Source of the DNA: an uncultured Candidatus Saccharibacteria bacterium
GTDB lineage: Bacteria; Patescibacteriota; Minisyncoccia; Phycocordibacterales; XYD1-FULL-46-19
Length of the DNA: 64,000 nt
Assembly: GCA_964639285.1 (NCBI GenBank)
Contig: CAZXCI010000002.1
Span: 45,660 to 109,659, forward strand
Direction: 5' to 3'
In this document: positions 9,843 through 59,477 of the stretch, piece by piece
How the letters are laid out: the number at the start of each line of letters is the position of its first letter
How positions within the stretch are numbered: position 1 is the stretch's first letter
Translations under genes and position numbers: made by a program
Notes under the pieces: generated by a model
Database searches by the model: none
The model's input: only the letters and a program-made list of their open reading frames with translations
What the model was told of the DNA's origin: nothing

Positions 9843-9934
9843 GGAGAGGTGGCTGAGTGGTCGAAAGCGCCTCACTGCTAACGAGGTAGGGGTCTTAAAG
9901 CCCCTCGAGGGTTCGAATCCCTCCCTCTCCGCCA
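9843..9934 (+). tRNA. tRNA-Ser (anticodon GCU)
   Basis: GGAGAGGTGGCTGAGTGGTCGAAAGCG... with a long variable arm, anticodon loop CTGCTAA, acceptor GGAGAGG/CCTCTCC, discriminator G and an encoded CCA. Confidence 0.85.
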
Positions 9935-10028: not shown

Positions 10029-11765
10029 TTAATAAGAATCAACCCCAATATAGTTTTTCCCATCAATCTTTTCAATCTTCAGATTAGAAAAATTTCCCTT
10101 TTCACCCCTCCATTCGTTTGAAAACCCCCAATCATTCCATTTCCAAACAGAAACATAATTACCATTACATCTTGGCTTTTGCGAGTAATTTCCTTCGGTC
10201 GTGATTAAATCATTTTTTCCGTCACCATCAATGTCGGCAAAAGTAAATTCGCAATTTGGTGCCTCAAGATTCGACGATTGCCAAATTGGTTTAATGACTC
10301 CATTGATAAGATCAAAGACAAAAAAGTGATTTTTTATACTCATATCATCTTCTTTAACCCAAAATGGTTTCGACGAGCCAAAATTACCGGACTTCCAGAC
10401 GGATAAATTTATATCTTTAACCCCATCATTATTAGAATCAGCCAGAACAAAACTATCTACCCACCAATCAGCTGATGATTGCCAAATCATTTTTGAACCT
10501 TCGGTAATAGTCAATCGACCGTCTTCTAAAACATAAGTTTCCGGAGTTGAATTATCATCTAAATCGGCCTGATCTTTTTTTGAAGCGATTACCCTATCTT
10601 TATTGGCTTCATTATAAATTGTTGCAATAGGTATTTTGTCAAAATTATTAGTTTGATTGTTCCAAAAATATGCGATCTTGTTCGCCAAGGGAAATTTTAA
10701 CCTCTTCAAAATGTCCTTTGCTTCATTATCGTTAGCCATTCTGGGCTGAGCTAGCTTTTCCATAACTACAGGCAAAAAAGAAATCTTACTGATTCCAGTT
10801 TTCGTAAAATATACCCTAACTATTAACCCCCCTCTTGTCTCTTGTAACCATGGCTGGTCAAAAACAAAATTCCCCAGACTGTAAAAAATGTATTTTCCTT
10901 TATATTTTTCCATCGTTTGAACTACGTGGGGGTGGTGCCCAATAATTAAATCAGCTCCGGCCTCAATGGCGGTGTGAGCGAAATTTATCTGTGAATTATC
11001 TGGTTGATCAGCATATTCAATACCTGAATGTATCGAGACAATAACAAAATCAGCTTTTTGTTTTGCGATTCTCACTACTTCGATCATTTTATCAGCTCTC
11101 ATAAAAGCTGTACCAACACGAGTATCGCTCGCCTCATATGAAGCTGGCACAACATCAGAATCGTTATAAGCCAAAAAAGCAAACTTAAGACCTTTCACTT
11201 CCACATAAACTGGTTGATTAGCTTCTCTCTCATCTTTTCCAGCTCCAACATATTTAATATTGACATTATTTAGATAATTAAAAGTATCTATTAATCCATT
11301 CTCACCAAAATTAGAGGTATGATTATTAGCTAATGATAAAATAGAAAAACCAGCATCCTTTAATGCCTGTTCAGTTCCCGGGTTTGACCGAAAAATCATC
11401 TCAAGATCAAGAATTTCTCGTCCTTCCGTAATCGGTGTTTCTAAATTGCCAAAAACTAAGTCTGCACCTTTTAAATAATCTTGAATTTTTAAGAACGGGT
11501 AATTGATATTTTTTTGTTTTTCCACAATCCTTTCTACCGCTCGCGAATAAGAAACATCACCAACAGCAATTAAAGAAACCTCCTCGCTAGCTTGAGGAAG
11601 TTTCTTTTTCTGTGCTGAAAAATCTAGGAAGTCTTTATTGGCTTGTGGCTGATTGCTTGTCGTTTTCTTGTCGGCAGAGAAATGTGAATAATAACTACCG
11701 CCCAAAATGGCGACAGCCAGAACAAAAAGAGAAAATAATATTATCCACGTAATTCTTCTTAGCAT
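10029..11765 (-). CDS. CapA/PgsA-family metallophosphoesterase with C-terminal FG-GAP/VCBS-like repeats
   Basis: 578 aa with an N-terminal TM anchor and a CapA-like core (GDVSYSR..., GNLETP, IHSGIEY, GHHPHV, SLGNFVFDQ). The C-terminus has repeated DxDGDG/NNDG motifs. Confidence 0.6.
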   Translation of the reverse strand: MLRRITWIILFSLFVLAVAILGGSYYSHFSADKKTTSNQPQANKDFLDFSAQKKKLPQASEEVSLIAVGDVSYSRAVERIVEKQKNINYPFLKIQDYLKGADLVFGNLETPITEGREILDLEMIFRSNPGTEQALKDAGFSILSLANNHTSNFGENGLIDTFNYLNNVNIKYVGAGKDEREANQPVYVEVKGLKFAFLAYNDSDVVPASYEASDTRVGTAFMRADKMIEVVRIAKQKADFVIVSIHSGIEYADQPDNSQINFAHTAIEAGADLIIGHHPHVVQTMEKYKGKYIFYSLGNFVFDQPWLQETRGGLIVRVYFTKTGISKISFLPVVMEKLAQPRMANDNEAKDILKRLKFPLANKIAYFWNNQTNNFDKIPIATIYNEANKDRVIASKKDQADLDDNSTPETYVLEDGRLTITEGSKMIWQSSADWWVDSFVLADSNNDGVKDINLSVWKSGNFGSSKPFWVKEDDMSIKNHFFVFDLINGVIKPIWQSSNLEAPNCEFTFADIDGDGKNDLITTEGNYSQKPRCNGNYVSVWKWNDWGFSNEWRGEKGNFSNLKIEKIDGKNYIGVDSY

Positions 11766-11770
11766 TCATT

Positions 11771-14035
11771 TTATTTGGCCACAAACGCCTTGGTCCAGTC
11801 CGGTAATTGCGGAGCTTGACCAGTGTTAAGCATATCTCGCCATTTTTTGTCGGTTAAGCGATCGGACATTGGCCATGAAAATTCATAGTAAGAATAAACT
11901 CCGCCCTTGGCGATTCTTAATTTACCATCAATCGGAACCACCACATAAATTTCAGAGATTTTACCCGTCCCTTCTTCTAAGACTTGGCCATTGGGATCAG
12001 TGGCAACATCTGCGATGATCGCCGCTGGGTTCTGGCTCAGATAATTACTTGGGCTGTTCATCTGTTTGAATTGAGGTTCATCTTTATTTATTTCAAGCCA
12101 AAGATGTTCAAGATCTCCGCCATATGACCGAATCAGCTCGTATTCGTCATCGGTCAATTTTTCATTGCTTAATTCTTTTTCGGATATTACCTTAAGCTTT
12201 AGTGCGAGTTCTTCCATTATGCCCAAATTTTCCTTCATACTCGACGTTAAGAGCCCTCGAATTTCTAAACCAGAACTGGTCATTTTGAGAAGCGAGGATA
12301 AACGCGCATAAACATAAGGGTTTGGTTCGACATAGCCACGGTCATCCTTCTGGTCTGGCCCACCACCGCCTTTTTCAGCATAAACTTGTTTAGCGTAAAG
12401 AATAGTATCATGCTTTAATTCACTCCAACTTCCCAAAAAGGTATTAAGGTCTTTTCTTGCCCACGCTTCATTTTGCATAAATGTTGGGTAACCATTCGTT
12501 TTTTCTTCAATTAGTGGTTTGAGTTGATATAACCAACCCCAATATAGATTTTGAGTCCAATTTTCAACTGGCAAACCGGCAATGTATGATCGCATTTTGG
12601 ACATATTTTCAGGATAGCAGGCGTATTGAGTTTCTCCTTGACCAGCCAAGATATTTAAGGCCTCTTTTGATCCCAAAGCTGAGGGGATATCCAATCCCTT
12701 GGGCAACATCCGGCCACTGGCAAAGGTCGCCCCAGCGGGACAAGGGTCTCCTTTGGGCCCAACCTCTCTAGTAATCAATCGCTGAAAGATGGCGGCATCA
12801 ATGGTAAACCGTTGCCCCATAAACCTAAACCCTTTGATTTCTTTTTCTCGGTCAGGCTGAATATCCGCGTTGAAAATTGGCATTGAATTTATTTGTGGTG
12901 GTTCAAGGGCTTTTGTTTCATCAACAAAGGAAGTAAATTTATTTTGATCAGTGGAGATAGTCTGAAGCTCTGCGTTGCCATAGATTTTTACCACTAAATC
13001 ACCGAATTGGTAATAGGTAATATCATCACTTTTGCCGACAAAAAAGTTAATTGGCTCATAAATTTTGTTCCAGCTGACCTGATTACTTTCTTTATTTAGA
13101 GCTAGCGTGATTAGAATACTTGATTTTATTTCATCGTCGTTTTTCAGACGGAAAGTCAATCGGCCATACCACATCATTGACTTAAAATAAGCTTTTAATT
13201 GTTCGGTCTTGTCGTAATGGCCCCTCGGAATGTATTGCGAATAGTCTTCTTTTAAAGCATCTGGGACATTATTGGTATCGCTACCCATATTCATCACCGG
13301 GGAAACGGTGATACCTTGATGGGTCTCAATTAATGCCAATTCCTGCCCAACTTCATTTTGGACAACAGATGGTACGATTACTGAAGAATCTAAGAGTTTA
13401 CTGCCAACCGCAAAAAATCCAACATTCCTTTTGGCGGCATTTTCCCATTCAGTACCCTTCAAACTATCGTATTGACTTAGGGCTTCAGCCAGCATTCCTG
13501 CATTAAGCTGTTTCAGTTCCGCCGTAAGTTTTTGCTCTTCCAATTGCTTAAGCAAAAAATCAAACATCAAGTGGTAATTATGAAGCATGGAATCAGTCGT
13601 CACGAAGTTTGGCACAAAACTATACCGATTTGATTCATAAAGCGAATAGAATTCGTTATTATAAGCTGGTTTGACGACAAAGGCGTTTTTTACTAGCAAA
13701 TTTTTTGCCTCAGTCGAAAAAGTAAAGTCACTAGCATTAGTGACATTGCTCAAATCCTGACTAACCGAATAAGCCGGAACTTTGGGTGTAACATTTACCG
13801 ATACCTCTTCATAAGTGGCAAATTTAGAGGCAAACGCCACAGCTGGCTTAGTAGTATCTTTAATAGCCTCTTGTCCTGATTTAGGAATAACGAAATAAAC
13901 GACCAAAGCTACTAGGGCAAGCACTACTAAAACACCCACAATGACTAAAAAATTATTTTTCTTAGGATTTGGTTCTGGAATAATCGGAGGAAGAACTGTT
14001 TTTGAAAATGGCTGATTAAAATTTTGATTGTCCAT
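11771..14035 (-). CDS. Large membrane-anchored hypothetical protein (possibly DUF3160-like)
   Basis: 754 aa with an N-terminal TM anchor followed by a large extracytoplasmic domain. The family assignment is tentative. Confidence 0.35.
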   Translation of the reverse strand: MDNQNFNQPFSKTVLPPIIPEPNPKKNNFLVIVGVLVVLALVALVVYFVIPKSGQEAIKDTTKPAVAFASKFATYEEVSVNVTPKVPAYSVSQDLSNVTNASDFTFSTEAKNLLVKNAFVVKPAYNNEFYSLYESNRYSFVPNFVTTDSMLHNYHLMFDFLLKQLEEQKLTAELKQLNAGMLAEALSQYDSLKGTEWENAAKRNVGFFAVGSKLLDSSVIVPSVVQNEVGQELALIETHQGITVSPVMNMGSDTNNVPDALKEDYSQYIPRGHYDKTEQLKAYFKSMMWYGRLTFRLKNDDEIKSSILITLALNKESNQVSWNKIYEPINFFVGKSDDITYYQFGDLVVKIYGNAELQTISTDQNKFTSFVDETKALEPPQINSMPIFNADIQPDREKEIKGFRFMGQRFTIDAAIFQRLITREVGPKGDPCPAGATFASGRMLPKGLDIPSALGSKEALNILAGQGETQYACYPENMSKMRSYIAGLPVENWTQNLYWGWLYQLKPLIEEKTNGYPTFMQNEAWARKDLNTFLGSWSELKHDTILYAKQVYAEKGGGGPDQKDDRGYVEPNPYVYARLSSLLKMTSSGLEIRGLLTSSMKENLGIMEELALKLKVISEKELSNEKLTDDEYELIRSYGGDLEHLWLEINKDEPQFKQMNSPSNYLSQNPAAIIADVATDPNGQVLEEGTGKISEIYVVVPIDGKLRIAKGGVYSYYEFSWPMSDRLTDKKWRDMLNTGQAPQLPDWTKAFVAK

Positions 14036-14258
14036 ATTTTTCTAATTAAAAATTGACTATTTTTATTTTAAATTTACGACTTTATTAATATCATTCTAAT
14101 TTTACCACAATTAACGATGTATTCACAAATGCCTAATTATGCTCGGTGAGTAATGTCAACGTCTTATCTTTGTATACAATCCTCGATCTCAAGTTTGCCA
14201 ACAATTCTCGCTTTTCGATAGTCGTTCCTTCCTTCAAAATATACTTGGCATAATTACG

Positions 14259-14777
14259 AATGTCGGTTTCTTTGTTATTTTAGATCTTTTCAGTCGAGCC
14301 AAGCACCGATCGCTGAAATATTTTGATTATATTTATGCTGTTCTACACTCGCCGAGTTATCGTGAGAAGTACAAAGAATTTCTCAAAATAGATTTTCCTC
14401 GCGTGCCATATCCAAAAGACAAGAAGCAGTTTGGGGGACTAGTTACGCTCGGTCGTGAACTGCGAGAGATTCATCTGCTCGAATCACCAAAAGTAAGCGA
14501 GTTTATTACGACCTATCCAGTTTCCGGTTCAGACACTGTTGAGAAAATCTCATATAAAAATGGCAATGTATATATAAATGTCGAGCAGTATTTCGGTGAT
14601 GTCCCAGAAGTGGCCTGGAACTTTTATATTGGTGGTTACCAACCGGCGCAAAAGTGGCTCAAAGACCGCAAAGGCCGTACCCTCACCAATGGAGACATCG
14701 AACACTATCAAAGAATCATCGTAGCCCTAGTGGAAACGGACAGGATCATGAAAGAAATTGATAGGGTGATTTTGTAG
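14259..14777 (+). pseudogene. C-terminal remnant of a type IIG RM / BREX PglX-like N6-adenine DNA methyltransferase
   Basis: A 172-codon ORF begins directly after an in-frame stop. It encodes ...YFDYIYAVLHSPSYREKYKEFLKIDFPRVPYP... and ...YIGGYQPAQKWLKDRKGRTLTNGDIEHYQRIIVALVETDRIMKEID, the conserved C-terminal module of type IIG/Eco57I/MmeI/PglX-type methyltransferases. The upstream roughly 900 aa of the enzyme is missing. Confidence 0.65.
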
Positions 14778-14829
14778 CACAAAAACACCATACTTCCAAT
14801 ATTTTAGATGTCAATAATATCAACAGTGC

Positions 14830-15552
14830 ATGTTTGCATTTTATACACAGGTTATGTACACTTTAGATATGAGCACTAAATACGCATCATTTATAAAATC
14901 CCTTAGAACAAAAAGGGGTATTTCACAGTCAACAGTGGCCGAAAAACTCGGACTCTCACGCCAATCATACATGGCTGTGGAGCGGGGAAGGCGAGAGATG
15001 ACCTTGCAGGAGGCAGAAAAATTATGTGAACTATATGGTATCTCAATTGAGGAACTTTCAAAAGTAACAGCCCCACAGTACGAAAAATATAAGCAGATGA
15101 TTCTGGTGTATCTCAAATATCCAGTATCAAGGGATGGACGAGTGCCAAAGACGAAACTTGCAAAACTCCTCTATCTTGCTGACTTTGCTTGGTATTACGA
15201 GAAACTGGAAAGCATGAGCGGAATGCAGTACCTGCGTCGCGTTTACGGGCCTGTTCCTGATCCATACTTCCGAGCACTTGACGAACTCGAAGAGGAAGGA
15301 AAGATCGTCGTAGACCGCAGGGGAGACGCGATGCTTGTATCTATTGGTGCAGGAGCGAGCCGTCAGAAACTAGATCTCCTTCAGAGTGATGAGGTTAAGC
15401 TTATGAAAAAGATCTCCACAAAGTGGAAAGATAAAAGGACTCAAGAAATTGTCGATTTTACCCATGAACAGCTTCCATATAAACTGTGTGCACCCGACGA
15501 GGCTATCCCCTACGAACTAATCACACAGGAAAATCCGGAATATGTCTACTAG
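14830..15552 (+). CDS. HTH (XRE-type) plus Panacea (DUF4065/SocA-like) domain antitoxin candidate
   Basis: The N-terminus has the HTH ISQSTVAEKLGLSRQSYMAVERGRREMTLQEAEKLCELYGISIEEL. The C-terminus has the Panacea-like core KTKLAKLLYLADFAWYYEKLESMSGMQYLRRVYGPVPDPY. The start could instead be the ATG at 14869. Confidence 0.6.
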   Translation: MFAFYTQVMYTLDMSTKYASFIKSLRTKRGISQSTVAEKLGLSRQSYMAVERGRREMTLQEAEKLCELYGISIEELSKVTAPQYEKYKQMILVYLKYPVSRDGRVPKTKLAKLLYLADFAWYYEKLESMSGMQYLRRVYGPVPDPYFRALDELEEEGKIVVDRRGDAMLVSIGAGASRQKLDLLQSDEVKLMKKISTKWKDKRTQEIVDFTHEQLPYKLCAPDEAIPYELITQENPEYVY

Positions 15553-15937
15553 CTATGTGGTTATTGTCGAAAAATTTGCCGAACGACACTACATCTCAAA
15601 ATTCAAGAAGAAGTATAAAAATGCTTGGGATATTACATGGAACGCTATCACGGAACAATTCAAGCGCATTGAAACTCTTATCGGAGTAAATAGTATTGTA
15701 GAAATTATCTGTGATGCAGGAGATATAAAAATCTGCAAAACGGAATTCCGTATCGCAGGACCTGGAAAATCTCGCCATGCTTCGGGAAATAGATGTATTA
15801 TTGCGGTGCAGAAAAGCACCGCAATTGTGCACACGCTTCTTGTGTATTCGAAAGGCGACATCAGTGGAACGAATGAGACGGCTGGGTGGAAAGCCATTGT
15901 CAAAGATAACTATCCAAAATATAGAGGACTCCTATAG
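15542..15937 (+). CDS. Putative toxin partner of the Panacea-domain antitoxin (novel small protein)
   Basis: 131 aa with an 11-nt overlap with the upstream Panacea gene, which is typical TA operon architecture. No confident family assignment. Confidence 0.45.
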   Translation: MSTSYVVIVEKFAERHYISKFKKKYKNAWDITWNAITEQFKRIETLIGVNSIVEIICDAGDIKICKTEFRIAGPGKSRHASGNRCIIAVQKSTAIVHTLLVYSKGDISGTNETAGWKAIVKDNYPKYRGLL

Positions 15938-16260
15938 TTTAGGATAATCAACCTCGTTTTTCCCCTCAGCGGACTTCGGTTTTGGAACCTCAAACTATTC
16001 AGGATGTACTTTGTAGATAGCCCTTAGTTTCTGTATACTTTTATCAAGATTCTCGAATTTGAGCCATACTTTTGGTTCAAAGTTGCGGACATCGTCTTCG
16101 CCAAGTTCTACATTCAGCGAAATTGAAAGATGTTGCCTCTAAAAAGTCCTTCTCGAAAAAGTTGTGGAGAAGAGTTTTTTCTGTTAAATCTAACTTTCTG
16201 TTAAAATATGGGTATCGGCAAAATGTTTATATTTTGTCTTTTATGAATTGAGACAAACTT

Positions 16261-18861
16261 ATGGAATTTGATATTCAAAAGAAAAATTTCTGGCATCTTT
16301 CGCCCGAGGAGACAGCTCAGCTGTTAGAAATAAATACTGAGAGGGGTTTATCTGCTCAAGATGTCGAAGACCGAGTGGCGACTTTTGGTCGAAATACCTT
16401 CGAGTCAACAGAGAGAGTGGGGAGATTAAAGATTCTTCTCCGACAATTAAAAAGTCCTCTGATTCTTATCCTTATTGGAGCGGGGATTGTCACACTTTTC
16501 ATCGCTCATTATCGGGATGCTATTTTTATTTTTTTCTCCGTTGTTGTCAATTCTCTGCTTGGTTTCTGGCAGGAGAATAAAGCCGAGCAGGCTTTGTCTG
16601 AGCTGAAGACTTATCTTAAACAAAGAGCGAGAGTTATTCGTGACGGCAAGGAACGAGAGATTGATGCCGAAGAGCTCGTCCCGGGCGACATTATTCGATT
16701 TGCTCAAGGTGATCGTGTGCCGGCGGATGCCCGAATCACTTTCGCGAACGAATTACAAATCGACGAGTCGGTGCTCACGGGGGAATCTTTGCCTGTCGCC
16801 AAAACAAGAGACAAAATACTTGATTCGGTAAAGATTGCTGATCAGACCTCGATGATTTTTGCTGGCACCTTGGTCACTCAGGGAGTAGGGACAGGGATTG
16901 TTTGTCGCACGGGTTCGAATACTGAGCTGGGGAAAATTGCCTCGCTCATCGCCAGTTCGGAGAACGAGAAGACATCTCTGCAGAAAGCGATTATAAAGTT
17001 TAGTCTCACTCTCAGTGCTATTCTTGGATTCTTGACACTCGCTGTCTTTATTGTTGGGATACTTTCTGGTCGGTCAGGGTTGGAGATGTTTCTCACTTCG
17101 GTGGCGATTGCTGTGGCGGCGATTCCTGAAGGTTTACCTATTTCTATGACCGTAATTTTGGCGGTGGGGGTGGAGAGAATGGCCAAACGTAAGGGAGTTG
17201 TTCGTAAACTTATTGCCGCAGAAGCTTTGGGTGGGACAACCATTATTTTAACAGACAAGACCGGAACTTTGACCATGGCTCGGATGGCTCTGTCTAGGAT
17301 TATTCCCTTTGGATCGAGTGAAGGGGAGATATTAAAGCGGGCTTTAGCCAATGCCATGGTTTTAGTTGAGAACCCAGAAGATTCTCCAGAAACTTGGCGA
17401 ATGGACGGTCGAATTATGGAGACGACATTAGTACGCTCGGCTGGGGGGTGGGGATTATCAGTCGATGAGATATTGGACAAGGGTCATGTTCTCCAGACAA
17501 GACCTTTTAACTCAGCTCAAAAGTTTTCGGCCTCTCTAATAAAGGAGTCTGATCGACATCTGGTCGTACTCTTTGGGGCGCCAGATATCTTGATTAAGCA
17601 TTCTTCGCTTGATGAGCAAAGAAGGAGGGAACTTCTCGATCAGATAGACAAACTGGCTTCATCTGGAGAACGAGTCCTCGGTCTGGCAACCAAAGAAATT
17701 TCAAACATAGACGATTTTTCCTTGTCTAAAGATTTTGATCCTATCGGCCTATCTTTCGATGGCCTTCTTACCTTTCGAGATCCTATTAGGCCGGGGATTA
17801 AATATACGGTCGAGCGTGTTGAGCGGGCGGGCATTAAGACGGTCGTCATGACCGGAGATCATCGGGGAACGGCGATTGCCGTAGCGAGAGAGATAGGCTT
17901 AACTATCGATAAGCGATCTGTGCTTGATGCTTCTGAATTAGCGATTCTGTCAGATGAAGAACTGAAAGATCGATTGCCTTATTTGTCGGTAATTTCACGA
18001 GTTACCCCTTCTGACAAACTTAGGGTTGCGAGGCTCTTCCAAGAATTAGGTGAAGTTGTCGCGATGACGGGGGATGGAGTTAACGATGCGCCAGCTATCA
18101 AACAAGCTGATGTCGGTATTGCGATGGGATCGGGTACAGAAGTAGCACAAAGTGTCGCTGATCTTGTCCTTCTTGACGATAATTTTGAGACAATCGTAGC
18201 CGCGATCGAAGAAGGGCGTCAGATTCTTGGCAATATCCGCAAGGTGTTAGTGTATTTTCTCTCAAACACAACTGATGAGCTCATTCTTATTGGAGGATCA
18301 ATTCTGGCGGGGATTCCTTTACCTTTGAATGCCCTTCAGATTTTGTGGGTCAATTTCTTTACTGATAGTTTCCCGGCTATTGCTTTTGCTTTTGAGAGAG
18401 AGGAAAATAGTCTTTCTCATAAACCCCACAGTAAAAAGATGGTACTCTTTGATCCACTAATGAAATTTCTCATTTTAATCATTGGTGTCTCAACCAGCGC
18501 TTTGTTGTTTGTCATTTATTTCGTCTTGTTGCGATTAGGATATGAACCCTCTTTTGTCAAGACGTTTACCTTCGCAGCCTTTGGGATATATACTCTTCTT
18601 GTGGCTTTCCCCATAAGAAGTCTCGGTAGGGGCATCCTGTCTTATCCTTTGTTTTCTAATCGGTATCTTTCTGGTGGGATCCTAATCGGTTTTGTTCTCA
18701 TGGCGGCGGCTGTTTATCTGCCAACCTTCCAGGATCTTTTTGGAACAGTTCCCTTACCATTTCCTTGGGTCGTCGGAGTGATTTTTATTGGGCTGTTTAA
18801 TGTCATCCTGATTGAGTTTGCTAAATTATTTTTTAGAATCAAATCAAAAAAATATGTTTAA
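16261..18861 (+). CDS. P-type ATPase, Ca2+/cation-transporting (type IIA-like)
   Basis: 866 aa with DKTGTLT phosphorylation, TGDHRGTA and TGDGVNDAPA motifs, and about 10 TM helices. Confidence 0.9.
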   Translation: MEFDIQKKNFWHLSPEETAQLLEINTERGLSAQDVEDRVATFGRNTFESTERVGRLKILLRQLKSPLILILIGAGIVTLFIAHYRDAIFIFFSVVVNSLLGFWQENKAEQALSELKTYLKQRARVIRDGKEREIDAEELVPGDIIRFAQGDRVPADARITFANELQIDESVLTGESLPVAKTRDKILDSVKIADQTSMIFAGTLVTQGVGTGIVCRTGSNTELGKIASLIASSENEKTSLQKAIIKFSLTLSAILGFLTLAVFIVGILSGRSGLEMFLTSVAIAVAAIPEGLPISMTVILAVGVERMAKRKGVVRKLIAAEALGGTTIILTDKTGTLTMARMALSRIIPFGSSEGEILKRALANAMVLVENPEDSPETWRMDGRIMETTLVRSAGGWGLSVDEILDKGHVLQTRPFNSAQKFSASLIKESDRHLVVLFGAPDILIKHSSLDEQRRRELLDQIDKLASSGERVLGLATKEISNIDDFSLSKDFDPIGLSFDGLLTFRDPIRPGIKYTVERVERAGIKTVVMTGDHRGTAIAVAREIGLTIDKRSVLDASELAILSDEELKDRLPYLSVISRVTPSDKLRVARLFQELGEVVAMTGDGVNDAPAIKQADVGIAMGSGTEVAQSVADLVLLDDNFETIVAAIEEGRQILGNIRKVLVYFLSNTTDELILIGGSILAGIPLPLNALQILWVNFFTDSFPAIAFAFEREENSLSHKPHSKKMVLFDPLMKFLILIIGVSTSALLFVIYFVLLRLGYEPSFVKTFTFAAFGIYTLLVAFPIRSLGRGILSYPLFSNRYLSGGILIGFVLMAAAVYLPTFQDLFGTVPLPFPWVVGVIFIGLFNVILIEFAKLFFRIKSKKYV

Positions 18862-55357: not shown

Positions 55358-55428
55358 TGCCGGATCGTCTAATGGTAGGACACATCCCTCTGGAGGATGG
55401 TATCTTGGTTCGAGTCCAAGTCCGGCAG
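55358..55428 (+). tRNA. tRNA-Gln (anticodon CUG)
   Basis: Acceptor TGCCGGA/TCCGGCA, anticodon stem CATCC/GGATG, loop CTCTGGA, T-arm CTTGGTTCGAGTCCAAG and discriminator G. Confidence 0.75.
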
Positions 55429-55589
55429 CACGCTAGTTTCGGTATCGAAGGACCTAAACAGGTAATAATTGTAATGGTTCTAGAATGATCTAAACTGGTA
55501 TGTGTCTTGTACATAGAACTTTTATTCAAAAAGTACCAGACCTAGACCAGTGACATTCCTAGAGGGTCAGCAGTCTAGAAAAGTATCGA

Positions 55590-58169
55590 ATGACCAAGAG
55601 GGGTCAATTTCCTAGTAACCTTCAAAATAGCTATAATTCGCACATGGAACCTCCAGAAGATACAACCGATGAATCACAGGCTTGGGTCTCAAAGATAAGG
55701 ATATGGGTGAAAAGCAGACTTGATTTTATATATGGTAAATGTAAGGAGGTAATACGTCACACCTCTAATATTTGCATTCTCTTCAAACAACAAAAGATCT
55801 TTCGCTGGGGAGTAAGGTTCAGATACCTTTTGTACAAGATTTCTCAGCATACAAAATTCCTAAGGCATATCTTTTTGGTCATTTGTGCTGTTATTCTTGC
55901 ATATTTTTTAATCCAGTTTACTGATCTTACTGATCCAAAGACCGCCTCAATCTCGAGTTTTGCAGATTATCTTTCAACAATAGGGGCAATGGTAGGTGGG
56001 GTGTTGGCCGTTGTGTTTTCATTGACCATATTTGGACAGCAGAGTATTTTGGATGTTCATTCAACAAAATTGCTTCACAAGTATGTGTATGGAATACGAG
56101 AGAAGAGCACTTTCTTTGGGATAAGTTTCATTACGTTGCTTTTCTTCGTGGCTAGCAGATGGTCGGCGAATGTAATCGAGCCCAACCCAGTTACATACAG
56201 CATTTTAATTTACGGATCCTCTATGCTCGTGGCGGTAGTCTTCGTATTAGTTGATCTGCTTTACCAGCGAGTCAGTGGCAAATCTTCCTCTGCTGAGATA
56301 TTCGGCTTCCTACAGAAAGAAAGTCTTGCGGTTTTGAAGAAGATAGATAAATACTCGCAACGTCTTGTAAACATTGGCGTTGCTGAGGGACGAGTGAAGA
56401 AACAGGAAGTTCAGATGGGCCTTCTAAAAGCTCAGAGTCGAGCTGCCGTATCTAAGACATTTCGAGCCGAACTAGATGAGAAACTCAAGGTTATTTATGA
56501 AATTACAGTTCGTCTTATAGCACGCAAGGAGTACGAACCTGCAAACAACGGGCTGCGCACTTTGCACGCTGTTATTAGGGAGTATCTATTACTGGTCAAA
56601 GATTCTTCGACCTCAATCCCTGCAAATAGTAGTTCTCTTGGTGTGTTGGGTTTACTCGCTCGGCAGAGTGATAGCGTTGATTTCCTGAATACCAACTTAG
56701 AACGTTTGGCTCGCATTGGGGAACAAAATGTTCTGAATGAAAATGTACAAAATCTTCAACTTGTAACGGATGTTTTTAAAGCCCTTGTTGCTCAAGCTGA
56801 GAGTATCAATCATGTTGGAAACGATACAGAAAACTACATTCTTCCCCTGATTATCGGTTATCAGACTGAGTATCTTGAGTTCGCCATTCTCCAAAATAAT
56901 CTCGAATCTGTCTGGCAAACAGCTCAAGCTCTTGATAACATGGCAGGATCTGCGGTTCGAGGAAAGTCTCAACAAGCACAACAGCAGATTAGAGAAAGCA
57001 TAGACAAGGTAATTCTGTTTGGAATCAAGAACGACAGAAGCTTTGTAATAAATGAATGTATGAATGCGGTGCTTGTTAGCATCATGTCTTTGTTCCATGA
57101 CAAGATGCCTTACGCATATACCTCAATTGATGATTCCCTAAAGCAAGTTGCAGCAAAGACGGAGCTGATTTATGTTGGAGTAAAAACAGGAATACTTACT
57201 GATCAGTTCACTACCACTCATTTCTTCACTCAGTGGTTGATTCATTTCCCAGTTCTTATAAATCAGTATCAGGATATAGTGGACAAGCGTGAAAAAGAAA
57301 GCTACCGAGAGAAACTCATACAAACAACAAAAGGCCTACAAAGACAACTCCGGCACATCTCTGAGAACATCAAAGATGTAGATAATCCGCTCGTTGAAGT
57401 TATTGGTAGAGTTATAGATGCTATGGGGGAATACCTTATATATTTCCTAAACCATCCGGATTTTATAGACGAGAAACGAGAAATCGAGAAAGTCCTTTAT
57501 GGCTATATTCATTTACCAGGATGGTTTGTTCATCATGCAACAACATACGAAAAGAATAATCAAAACCGATCTCTTGTTGAAGCCATAACAAAAATAGGCA
57601 TTTTTTTATTTGAAAAGTATCGCGATGAACGTCTCATCGAAGCTTGTATTGATTCCTTGTTTACTTTAGTGAAGGCGCTTTTTGAAAAGAATCCAAAATC
57701 ATACTTGTTCGATGAAGCTCGTGTAATGGTTAAGATTTGTTATCTCGGCGTTTTAGCAAGGAAGCACAGCATGAAGAGACTTTATGCTCTTGTGCGTGTA
57801 AAGATTCTTGAATTCGATAGATTGTACGCGGCTGCATATCAAAAAGAACTTAAAAAAGTACCTCAAGATTTGCGTGCTCAAATTGAAGCAAGAACAGTTT
57901 ATGGCTTCCCTGATAAAGAACGACTAAAGCAGGAGGTCTTTGCTTGGCGAAATGACGTGTATCGAGATACTAGTGGTGGCATGGCTCGCATGATGGGTGA
58001 TTCTCGAGGAATTGTTCAAGATTCTGTTACTATTGAGGACATTGATTGGTTTATGTGGGAAGTCTGGAGTGAGATTGACGCGTCCAGCTCGATCTCTGAT
58101 AAGATAGATTTGCAGTGGGCCAGAGAGCGTCTTTCGAAGACTTTAAGAAAAATTGCTGATGGAAAGTAA
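55590..58169 (+). CDS. Large (859 aa) hypothetical membrane protein with extensive cytoplasmic alpha-helical domain
   Basis: Four predicted TM helices within residues about 90-230, then roughly 600 aa with no recognised motif. It converges on the serine recombinase and overlaps it by 27 nt. Confidence 0.45.
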   Translation: MTKRGQFPSNLQNSYNSHMEPPEDTTDESQAWVSKIRIWVKSRLDFIYGKCKEVIRHTSNICILFKQQKIFRWGVRFRYLLYKISQHTKFLRHIFLVICAVILAYFLIQFTDLTDPKTASISSFADYLSTIGAMVGGVLAVVFSLTIFGQQSILDVHSTKLLHKYVYGIREKSTFFGISFITLLFFVASRWSANVIEPNPVTYSILIYGSSMLVAVVFVLVDLLYQRVSGKSSSAEIFGFLQKESLAVLKKIDKYSQRLVNIGVAEGRVKKQEVQMGLLKAQSRAAVSKTFRAELDEKLKVIYEITVRLIARKEYEPANNGLRTLHAVIREYLLLVKDSSTSIPANSSSLGVLGLLARQSDSVDFLNTNLERLARIGEQNVLNENVQNLQLVTDVFKALVAQAESINHVGNDTENYILPLIIGYQTEYLEFAILQNNLESVWQTAQALDNMAGSAVRGKSQQAQQQIRESIDKVILFGIKNDRSFVINECMNAVLVSIMSLFHDKMPYAYTSIDDSLKQVAAKTELIYVGVKTGILTDQFTTTHFFTQWLIHFPVLINQYQDIVDKREKESYREKLIQTTKGLQRQLRHISENIKDVDNPLVEVIGRVIDAMGEYLIYFLNHPDFIDEKREIEKVLYGYIHLPGWFVHHATTYEKNNQNRSLVEAITKIGIFLFEKYRDERLIEACIDSLFTLVKALFEKNPKSYLFDEARVMVKICYLGVLARKHSMKRLYALVRVKILEFDRLYAAAYQKELKKVPQDLRAQIEARTVYGFPDKERLKQEVFAWRNDVYRDTSGGMARMMGDSRGIVQDSVTIEDIDWFMWEVWSEIDASSSISDKIDLQWARERLSKTLRKIADGK

Positions 58170-59477
58170 CTTTTCTTTCATGTTAATTTTGCTTTTAAAA
58201 CAGGTAAGTAGATCTCGCTTCTCAAACAGTGTTCCTTCCAACAAAAGATATTTTGCATAATTTCTAATATCAGCGTCTTTTGCCGAGTAATTTTCTTGGG
58301 TTTTTCCCATAATTCCAGAGTGAAACTTTTTATGTCTCTCAATTTCGACTTCAAGCTTTTTTCTTATACCAGATTTATCTAGATCTACCTTGTCTATAAT
58401 TTTAGCCAATTGATCAATCAGAACTTTCTCCTCAATATAACCCTCCTTGCAGTTGATATCTCGTGAGCGAGTACAACCATAATAAATATATTTGGAGACA
58501 GAACCATCTTTTAAGGTCTTAAATTTCTCCTGGGCAGTTACACCAGATCCACACGCTCCACAAAAGAGAAGCCGGGTAAAAGCAAATTCCTTATTTCTAT
58601 CCTTTGCCTTTACTTGCAAATGAAGTTGGGTTTGTACTTGGTCAAATAAACTCTTCGAGATAAGAGGCGTATGTTTACCTTGAAACCATCGACCACTTTT
58701 CTTTGGGTATTCAAAGGCCCCATAGTAGAAATGACTGTTGAGGATTACGTAGATGTTACTAAGCGTAAGAGACTTTTCGTTTCGTGTTGTAAATTTTATC
58801 TCCTTGAGCCATCGATACACTTTTCTGCCACTCCATCCCTCGTTGCCAACTTTTTGAAATATTTCTTTCATAATCGGAGCACGATCTGGATCAACAAAGA
58901 CAACACCTGGTTGGTCCTTGTTCTTCGAGTTAAGGTATCCAGTAGGGGCAACGGATGGCCAAAGTCCCATTTCGCACCGAGTTTTTAACCCTCGTTTAAC
59001 ATTCACACTCTTGTTGTCGTTTTCAAGTTTAGCCTGTGATCCGAGAATCATGAGGAGGAATTTTTCGTTTGGATTGTTAGTAAATCTTTGACTGTAGGTT
59101 CTAATTTCGATTAGTTTTTTCTGATCAAGTAAATCTACCAGTGCGCCCAGATCACCGGCGTTTCTAGAAAGACGATCAGGATGCCAGACAAGAATACTGT
59201 TGAATTTACCCTCCCTAATATCTGTGAGCAGTTTATTAAAAACCGGTCTTTGTCCGCAATCTTTCGCAGAGTGTGATTCTCGATACATGTCAGCCACATT
59301 GATGCCCTCTCGCTGAGCAAGGGTCAACATTTCTTTGATCTGGGAGTCAATCGACAAGGCCTGCCTTTCTTCAGCCTCGCTCGATTTACGGGCGTATAGG
59401 CAGTACTTGAGGGGAATTACTGCTGGTACCTCGTCAGTCGCTTGTAGTGGACTTTGTATTTGCACAACACAACACAT
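58143..59477 (-). mobile_element. Large serine recombinase (resolvase/integrase family)
   Basis: An N-terminal resolvase catalytic domain with YARKSS (Ser nucleophile) and the conserved R, D, R residues, then a recombinase domain and a zinc-ribbon (LLFCGACGSGV...YYGCTRSRDINC), then a coiled-coil C-terminus. Confidence 0.8.

Follow-up and report, generated by a model that had tools for sequence, protein, structure and literature searches.

PanAT systems are toxin-antitoxin (TA) loci in which an antitoxin carrying a Panacea (DUF4065) domain, PanA, is paired with a variable toxin, PanT (Kurata et al. 2022, PMC8832971). PanAs with toxins that HHpred scored as HigB-2-, YoeB-, or RelE-like constitute clusters T14 and T28 in Dataset S1 of that study, and the RelE/ParE fold is among the commonest in the NetFlax network (PMC10440598). 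Here, a comparable gene pair was analyzed in a 64-kb stretch of contig CAZXCI010000002.1 from an uncultured Candidatus Saccharibacteria bacterium (64,000 nucleotides, the whole of which is referred to as the window). The two genes, panA and the toxin candidate panT, lie in a 2.2-kb islet that a first-pass annotation had described as decayed. With a probability of about 0.75, the pair is an intact type II TA module of the PanAT type, with a RelE-fold toxin, inside a decayed restriction-modification (RM) and recombinase island.

The panA gene (14830-15552, plus strand) encodes a protein of 240 amino acids with an HTH_3 helix-turn-helix (HTH) domain at residues 22 to 76 (Pfam, E=1.9e-13) and a SocA_Panacea domain (PF13274) at residues 110 to 217 (E=1.1e-10). 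The latter match spans positions 1 to 112 of the 113 in the profile and scores 42.8 bits against a gathering score of 25.7, which bears out the earlier HTH-plus-Panacea call and gives the protein the domain that characterizes PanAT antitoxins. Homologues are called at 225 to 232 amino acids, and the true start of panA may therefore be the ATG at 14854 or 14869. As previously noted, the gene overlaps that of a 131-amino-acid protein, panT (15542-15937), by 11 nt (15542-15552, ATGTCTACTAG). The locus resembles described PanAT systems (PMC8832971) in its Panacea domain above the Pfam threshold, in an N-terminal HTH like that of 343 of their PanAs, in the antitoxin-first order, in being a two-gene locus with <100 nt between the genes, and in its occurrence in many taxa with variable flanks. 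The closest clusters are T14 and T28, likened to it through the HHpred descriptions of their toxins, which share the RelE/ParE fold predicted here for the panT product. The pair has the locus features by which PanAT systems are defined.

The 131-amino-acid protein had been regarded as having no recognizable family. This holds for the family databases, since no match was found in Pfam, NCBIfam, PADLOC, or PHROGs or among PDB sequences (phmmer), but it does not hold for structure comparison, which alone could name the protein after sequence-profile routes had given nothing useful. An AlphaFold2 model based on a 69-sequence alignment is confident (pLDDT 88.4, pTM 0.83) and shows a strand, a long helix, four strands, and a C-terminal helix, in this order. 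The top-ranked structure matches are all ribonucleases (RelE, YoeB, HigB2, HigB, and YafQ). From this model, the protein is predicted to possess the RelE/ParE fold that characterizes the superfamily, a small alpha/beta fold with N-terminal helices packed against an antiparallel sheet. Catalytic residues are K52, K54, R61, R81, and Y87 in RelE and E46, R65, H83, and Y84 in YoeB. The toxin alignment contains 24 invariant positions, including R15, H16, K66, E68, R70, N83, R84, Y102, and K104, of which K66, E68, R70, N83, R84, Y102, and K104 are placed on or after the strands of the sheet, and the invariant residues appear to match the pattern expected of RelE/YoeB-type catalytic sites. An mRNA endonuclease is slightly favored as the activity of the toxin. 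The main rival explanation, a ParE-like DNA gyrase poison, would have the same fold and would still be neutralized by PanA; it is unlikely, because no ParE protein is found among the highest-ranked matches and because the sheet is densely populated with invariant residues (Lys, Glu, Arg, His, and Tyr), as is typical of the RNases in the superfamily but not of ParE.

The predicted mRNA endonuclease is distant from its described counterparts. It shares amino acid identities of only 14% to 19% with Pyrococcus horikoshii aRelE (1wmi), Staphylococcus aureus YoeB (7v6w), and Vibrio cholerae HigB2 (5mje), and in comparison with the ribosome-dependent RelE, YoeB, and HigB mRNA interferases it is about 40 residues longer, its catalytic residues are putative, and its partner is an HTH-Panacea protein instead of RelB, YefM, or HigA. 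Unlike the PanAT toxin clusters, the family lacks a Pfam model, and HMMER detects no link between it and RelE families; the length of 131 residues, the long N-terminal helix, the extra hairpin, and the C-terminal helix set it apart from known PanAT toxins.

Several observations weigh against the assignment of the pair to a TA module with a RelE-fold toxin. A profile hmmsearch of the toxin family against PDB sequences returned no match, and neither did a Pfam search with 10 distant members. Among the 69 aligned members, a single one touches PF06296 in Pfam (E=0.07), with no other link to RelE, ParE, or HigB, and sequence profiles place the protein in none of the curated RelE, ParE, HigB, YoeB, or YafQ families. 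The invariant residues were mapped to catalytic positions by the order of secondary structure elements and not by superposition. Some multidomain PanAs use an element other than the Panacea domain for neutralization, and whether Panacea itself or an appended element neutralizes the toxin was left open for HTH-Panacea antitoxins (PMC10440598); in the present PanA, the 23-residue tail after the domain (residues 218 to 240) is a candidate for the toxin-neutralizing element. Finally, insertion of the islet is deduced from its variable flanks because no relative with an empty site was found. The genome contigs scanned via the neighboring DUF3160 gene contained no empty integration site, and in them a PGA_cap gene and the DUF3160 gene form a conserved pair that is never beside a P-type ATPase gene.

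The toxin family comprises 460 proteins in a word-indexed search, almost all of 130 to 133 amino acids and with identities of 62% to 89%. A full hmmsearch of 1.84 billion cluster representatives yielded 209 clusters (50% identity) at E≤1e-3 and 146 at E≤1e-10. The named sources are Zambryskibacteria, Woesebacteria, and other Patescibacteria, together with single bins labeled Nanoarchaeota and Ilumatobacteraceae, and UniRef gives one cluster member the name 'Addiction module toxin RelE'. The closest homologue, with 87% identity, is from Candidatus Zambryskibacteria and occurs in L001-L006 and L012 (L numbers denote the metagenome contigs or loci used for comparison). The family is absent from IMG/VR viral contigs, GenBank phages, and PLSDB plasmids, and a phage or plasmid vehicle is thus unsupported. 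The family is uncatalogued in Pfam and, in the collections searched, confined to uncultured, mostly Patescibacteria-labeled contigs, in which it differs from PanAT systems generally.

The toxin alignment was also used to retrieve 80 metagenome loci, in 79 of which a PanA homologue (45% to 92% identity) ends just inside the toxin gene; the sole exception has no upstream DNA. The 11-nt overlap is the same in 70 of the 76 distinct loci, and the identities of PanA and of the toxin to the window pair are correlated (r=0.82). HTH-Panacea genes also precede two distant members of the toxin family (profile E values of 1e-15 to 1e-21). The flanks vary by locus and include a type IIG enzyme, Mrr with NYN, MmeI with Mrr, glycosyltransferases, MscL, and BtpA. 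At the DNA level (blastn, 83% to 84% identity), the left edge of homology at 14779 is common to three contexts (L011, L012, and L014), and the right edge falls at 15952 in L012, 16050 in L011, and 16139 in L014. Codon changes relative to L014 are mostly synonymous, with 69 synonymous against 19 nonsynonymous in panA and 48 against 16 in the toxin gene, which shows strong purifying selection on both genes. The pair is regarded as mobile because its flanking genes differ between loci, and it bears the marks of a mobile module of two translationally coupled genes under selection. The PanAT architecture proposed in the first-pass annotation is thus upheld by the Panacea domain, the overlap, and the joint retention of both genes in every locus with upstream DNA.

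A regulatory or sensory module was considered as another explanation, in which a phage-sensing HTH-Panacea regulator would have a non-toxic RelE-fold partner, or the pair would control neighboring restriction genes. In favor of this reading, the PADLOC models of RM 'control proteins' also match the HTH region of PanA (E=1.4e-9), RM or Mrr genes are repeatedly found beside the pair (L007 and L179-181), and Panacea has been suggested to have a sensory function (PMC10440598). However, the control-protein match is a generic HTH_3 similarity, and the RM neighbor is limited to one clade, with entirely different neighbors beside the pair elsewhere. Strict two-gene coupling, the 11-nt overlap, and the RelE fold together are the standard signature of type II TA systems, which makes a purely regulatory module very unlikely and leaves the TA module as the preferred reading.

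The islet that houses the TA pair is flanked by the start of a DUF3160 gene (11771-14035, minus strand) and by a P-type cation ATPase gene (16261-18861, plus strand). It contains five features, an RM stump, panA, the 131-amino-acid open reading frame (ORF), and two minus-strand remnants, which are given below together with the conserved cassette.

14133-14321, minus strand: 3' remnant of a large serine recombinase gene (tblastn to an ORF of L014; C-terminus of the window's own recombinase)
14322-14777, plus strand: 3' stump of a type IIG RM enzyme gene, 151 codons and a stop (PF18135, PADLOC REase_MTase_IIG, and the L001 orthologue)
14779-15952, plus strand: PanAT cassette conserved at the DNA level (blastn, 83% to 84% identity)
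14830-15552, plus strand: panA, antitoxin candidate with HTH and Panacea domains (Pfam HTH_3 and SocA_Panacea)
15542-15937, plus strand: panT, 131-amino-acid toxin candidate with a predicted RelE/ParE fold (structure comparison of the predicted model)
15932-16102, minus strand: decayed segment of a conserved ORF, about 55 to 56 codons (frame comparison with L014 and L011)

The RM stump lies in a plus-strand frame that ends at the TAG at 14775-14777 and holds the peptides quoted in the first-pass annotation. It matches Type_ISP_C (PF18135) with an E value of 1.6e-49, at profile positions 186 to 342 of 342 only, and the PADLOC type IIG model PDLC03610 (REase_MTase_IIG) with an E value of 1.5e-57, at positions 904 to 1075 of 1096. 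The 151 residues encoded at 14322-14774 share 86% amino acid identity with residues 807 to 957 of the part of an orthologue contained in L001. The intact orthologue is called at 1013 amino acids, has N6_Mtase, MmeI_Mtase, Eco57I, and Type_ISP_C domains, and directly precedes the same HTH-Panacea/131-amino-acid pair in L001-L006 and L012. The stump thus resembles type IIG MmeI/Eco57I-like enzymes in aligning to their extreme C-terminus and in the position of its orthologue relative to PanAT, and it differs from them in keeping only 151 of about 1013 residues. The stump lacks the nuclease and methyltransferase domains as well as the first half of the C-terminal specificity domain, and no other piece of the enzyme was found anywhere in the 64-kb window by tblastn with the L001 enzyme. 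By homology, the stump is the specificity-domain end of a type IIG enzyme, a remnant and not a member of the class in working order, and it cannot restrict or methylate because no catalytic motif is left.

These results support the earlier description of a decayed islet with an RM remnant. The assignment to the C-terminus of a type IIG enzyme, the absence of an upstream remainder, and the pseudogene call all stand, since the fragment matches the end of a large enzyme in PADLOC and in the orthologue, not a small protein family, and the truncation is confirmed against the intact 1013-amino-acid orthologue in the same position. Other details are revised. The homology covers 151 residues, not about 170, and begins at 14322 instead of 14259; the surviving part is the tail of the specificity domain and not of a methyltransferase domain; and the in-frame stop placed directly upstream is in fact at 14151-14153, the nearest one. 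The suggested PglX or BREX relationship was rejected, because all models returned by the PADLOC scan were of type IIG or type I fused RM, with no PglX or BrxX among them, and because the neighbors at the intact orthologous locus are tRNA-Ser, DUF1508, and PanAT, with no BREX partner gene either there or in the islet. A Type ISP enzyme proper was likewise rejected, as the domains recorded for the intact orthologue include no helicase.

The frame upstream of the stump is open from 14154, and the stump could accordingly be read as a retained functional small protein, with 124 amino acids from the GTG at 14403 or 207 amino acids from 14154. The 207 codons contain no internal stop, a gene caller annotated a 124-amino-acid product on the identical Logan contig, and the differences from the intact orthologue (19, 9, and 70 at codon positions 1, 2, and 3, respectively) are mostly synonymous (59 synonymous and 21 nonsynonymous codons). 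However, such a protein would cover only the second half of one domain, no stand-alone protein family of this kind was seen, and the relatives with the domain are enzymes of about 1000 amino acids. Upstream of 14322, the frame runs antisense to the recombinase remnant, and its openness from 14154 is due to chance or drift. The mostly synonymous changes indicate that the divergence mostly predates the loss of selection and that the deletion is comparatively recent, in which case a synonymous excess is expected. A functional small protein is therefore highly improbable, and the stump is treated as a remnant of the RM gene.

In sister contigs, a segment of about 355 bp with a 63-amino-acid DUF1508 gene on the minus strand (L001 3004-3195; also in L002-L006, L012, and L013) lies between the intact RM gene and panA. 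The window is without this segment, and its RM stop and the edge of the PanAT cassette are 1 nt apart. A 14-nt inverted repeat, TAGGGTGATTTTGT / ACAAAAACACCATA (window 14762-14792, 86% complementary, 3-nt spacer), extends across both the stop codon of the RM stump and the left boundary of the cassette homology; it may represent either a terminator stem or a feature of the junction. An Rfam scan of 13900-16400, judged by E value, gave no match. Neither a terminator nor a convincing sigma-70 promoter was found for the operon, a result that is uninformative for Patescibacteria.

The left remnant (14133-14321) directly adjoins the RM stump in divergent orientation. It encodes the last 60 or so codons of a recombinase and a stop, reading IFQRSVLGSTEKI, a stop, NNKETDIRNYAKYILKEGTTIEKRELLANLRSRIVYKDKTLTLLTEHN, and a stop, with the internal TAA at 14280-14282, and no start codon gives an ORF of 35 amino acids or more. 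It is 82% identical (tblastn) to a 72-amino-acid ORF at the same position in L014. The first database search with this remnant returned only ORFs of ≤108 amino acids, which counted against a recombinase identity. That identity is nevertheless confirmed, because the remnant family matches residues 353 to 440 of the window's intact recombinase (47% identity over 88 amino acids, E=3e-24) and has full-length relatives in L100, L107, and L094. The intact recombinase (58143-59477, minus strand) has 444 amino acids and contains Resolvase, Recombinase, and Zn_ribbon_recom domains. Although the left remnant is homologous to the last 60 to 90 or so residues of large serine recombinases, it consists of the C-terminal tail alone, interrupted by a stop, without the domains of such enzymes, and is thus a remnant. 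Serine recombinase genes are directly beside the PanAT pair in L037, L049, L051, and L046, and the island is bordered by tRNA-Ser genes in L012 and L014; judged from these neighborhoods, the pair would fit carriage on integrative elements.

The tRNA-Ser genes of these relatives are at or near the left edge of the island, at 3138-3227 in L014, about 600 bp from the recombinase remnant, and at 715-804 in L012, directly upstream of the intact RM gene. The tRNA-Ser(gct) gene of the window (9843-9934) is 4 kb off, with the PGA_cap-DUF3160 pair intervening. C-terminal tails of this recombinase clade also occur as 87 separately called ORFs of 51 to 108 amino acids, 65% to 100% identical and with synonymous-biased substitutions, on contigs of Zambryskibacteria, Vogelbacteria, and Nomurabacteria (e.g., L014 3821-4036, L094 1627-1902, and L095 4001-4270), and they are either frequent wreckage or a retained small protein. 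The intact recombinase gene overlaps the end of an ORF of 859 amino acids (55590-58169, no Pfam match) just downstream of a tRNA-Gln gene (55358-55429), and the region from 55358 to 59477 may be a second, still intact integrative element.

The right remnant is convergent with the toxin gene, and its stop (15932-15934) is back to back with the toxin stop. The first-pass annotation had reported a 43-codon C-terminal fragment here (15999-16130, minus strand); the fragment is real, its extent is about 55 to 56 codons at 15932-16102, and the parent gene was not found. Its frame is interrupted by a TAG (15995-15997) at the codon that reads TGG (Trp) in L014 and L011, which bears out the suggestion of further gene decay in the islet. 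The segment of about 50 to 55 residues has the consensus GGDDxRNFEPKxRLKFExLDKSIQKLRAIYKVHPEWFEVPKPKSDKGQNAVDYS and includes LDKSIQKLRAIYKVHPEWFEVPKPKS. It is all that is common to a widespread family of 56 short ORFs of 36 to 109 amino acids, whose N-termini are unrelated, and it also occurs at loci without PanAT (L091 4046-4210 and L093 4049-4210). The segment, of which a further copy lies at L089 7881-8045, is found at unrelated loci and has sharp edges and unrelated upstream sequence. At the DNA level, only about 160 nt are conserved, and the changes there fall disproportionately on third positions. An RNA element is improbable, given this coding-like substitution pattern and the lack of an Rfam match over 13900-16400, and an origin as the C-terminus of a large gene is unsupported, as the search gave no full-length parent and the 56 relatives have unrelated N-termini. 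The right remnant is best described, from frame comparison, as the decayed copy of a small conserved ORF whose family has no assigned function.

In the proposed working of the module, panA and the toxin gene would be translationally coupled via their overlap. The toxin, a putative member of the RelE/ParE superfamily and most likely a RelE/YoeB/HigB-like, translation-dependent mRNA endonuclease, would arrest translation, and PanA would neutralize it by direct binding via the Panacea domain and/or the C-terminal tail, while its N-terminal HTH would repress the operon and thus provide autoregulation. The islet would be the relic of a horizontally acquired defense or mobile island with one module, the PanAT-type pair, still intact. 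The RM gene and the divergent serine recombinase gene probably lost their 5' parts together, and a single deletion of both parts and the shared intergenic region is the simplest explanation because the two homologies meet at 14321/14322. The small convergent ORF downstream would have gained its stop codon, and the TA pair probably survived as its loss was penalized (addiction); it may also act in phage defense.

On the left side of the islet, the PGA_cap (578 amino acids) and DUF3160 (754 amino acids) genes are adjacent at 10029-14035. The pair is also kept across L098-L177, ranging from Patescibacteria to metagenome-assembled genomes of Pelotomaculum and Syntrophomonas (Firmicutes), with DUF3160 identities of 54% to 77%, which points to two cell-envelope genes that are linked in function and possibly shared horizontally. 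The window also carries a tmRNA gene at 1180-1565 (tag peptide ANASNKGGVASPYFSPAFALA), one of nine tRNA and tmRNA genes, which are ordinary housekeeping features.

The pairing of PanA with RelE/HigB-like toxins and the presence of TA genes in defense islands are already established, and the islet, in which an addictive gene pair has outlasted a defense island in decay, is unexceptional and leaves current understanding unchanged. It adds to the Panacea network a well-delimited toxin family of 209 clusters at 50% identity for which no Pfam model exists. More speculatively, and with considerable doubt, the family may represent an uncatalogued, Patescibacteria-restricted branch of the RelE fold with an obligate HTH-Panacea partner, carried on serine-recombinase elements into restriction-rich islands as an abortive-infection, anti-phage module. 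If true, it would be one of the few defense systems specific to ultra-small episymbiotic bacteria. In one 2-kb stretch, a TA pair under purifying selection is found amid a decaying restriction enzyme, recombinase, and small ORF, and its survival there is in keeping with addiction as the reason why TA systems persist in streamlined genomes.

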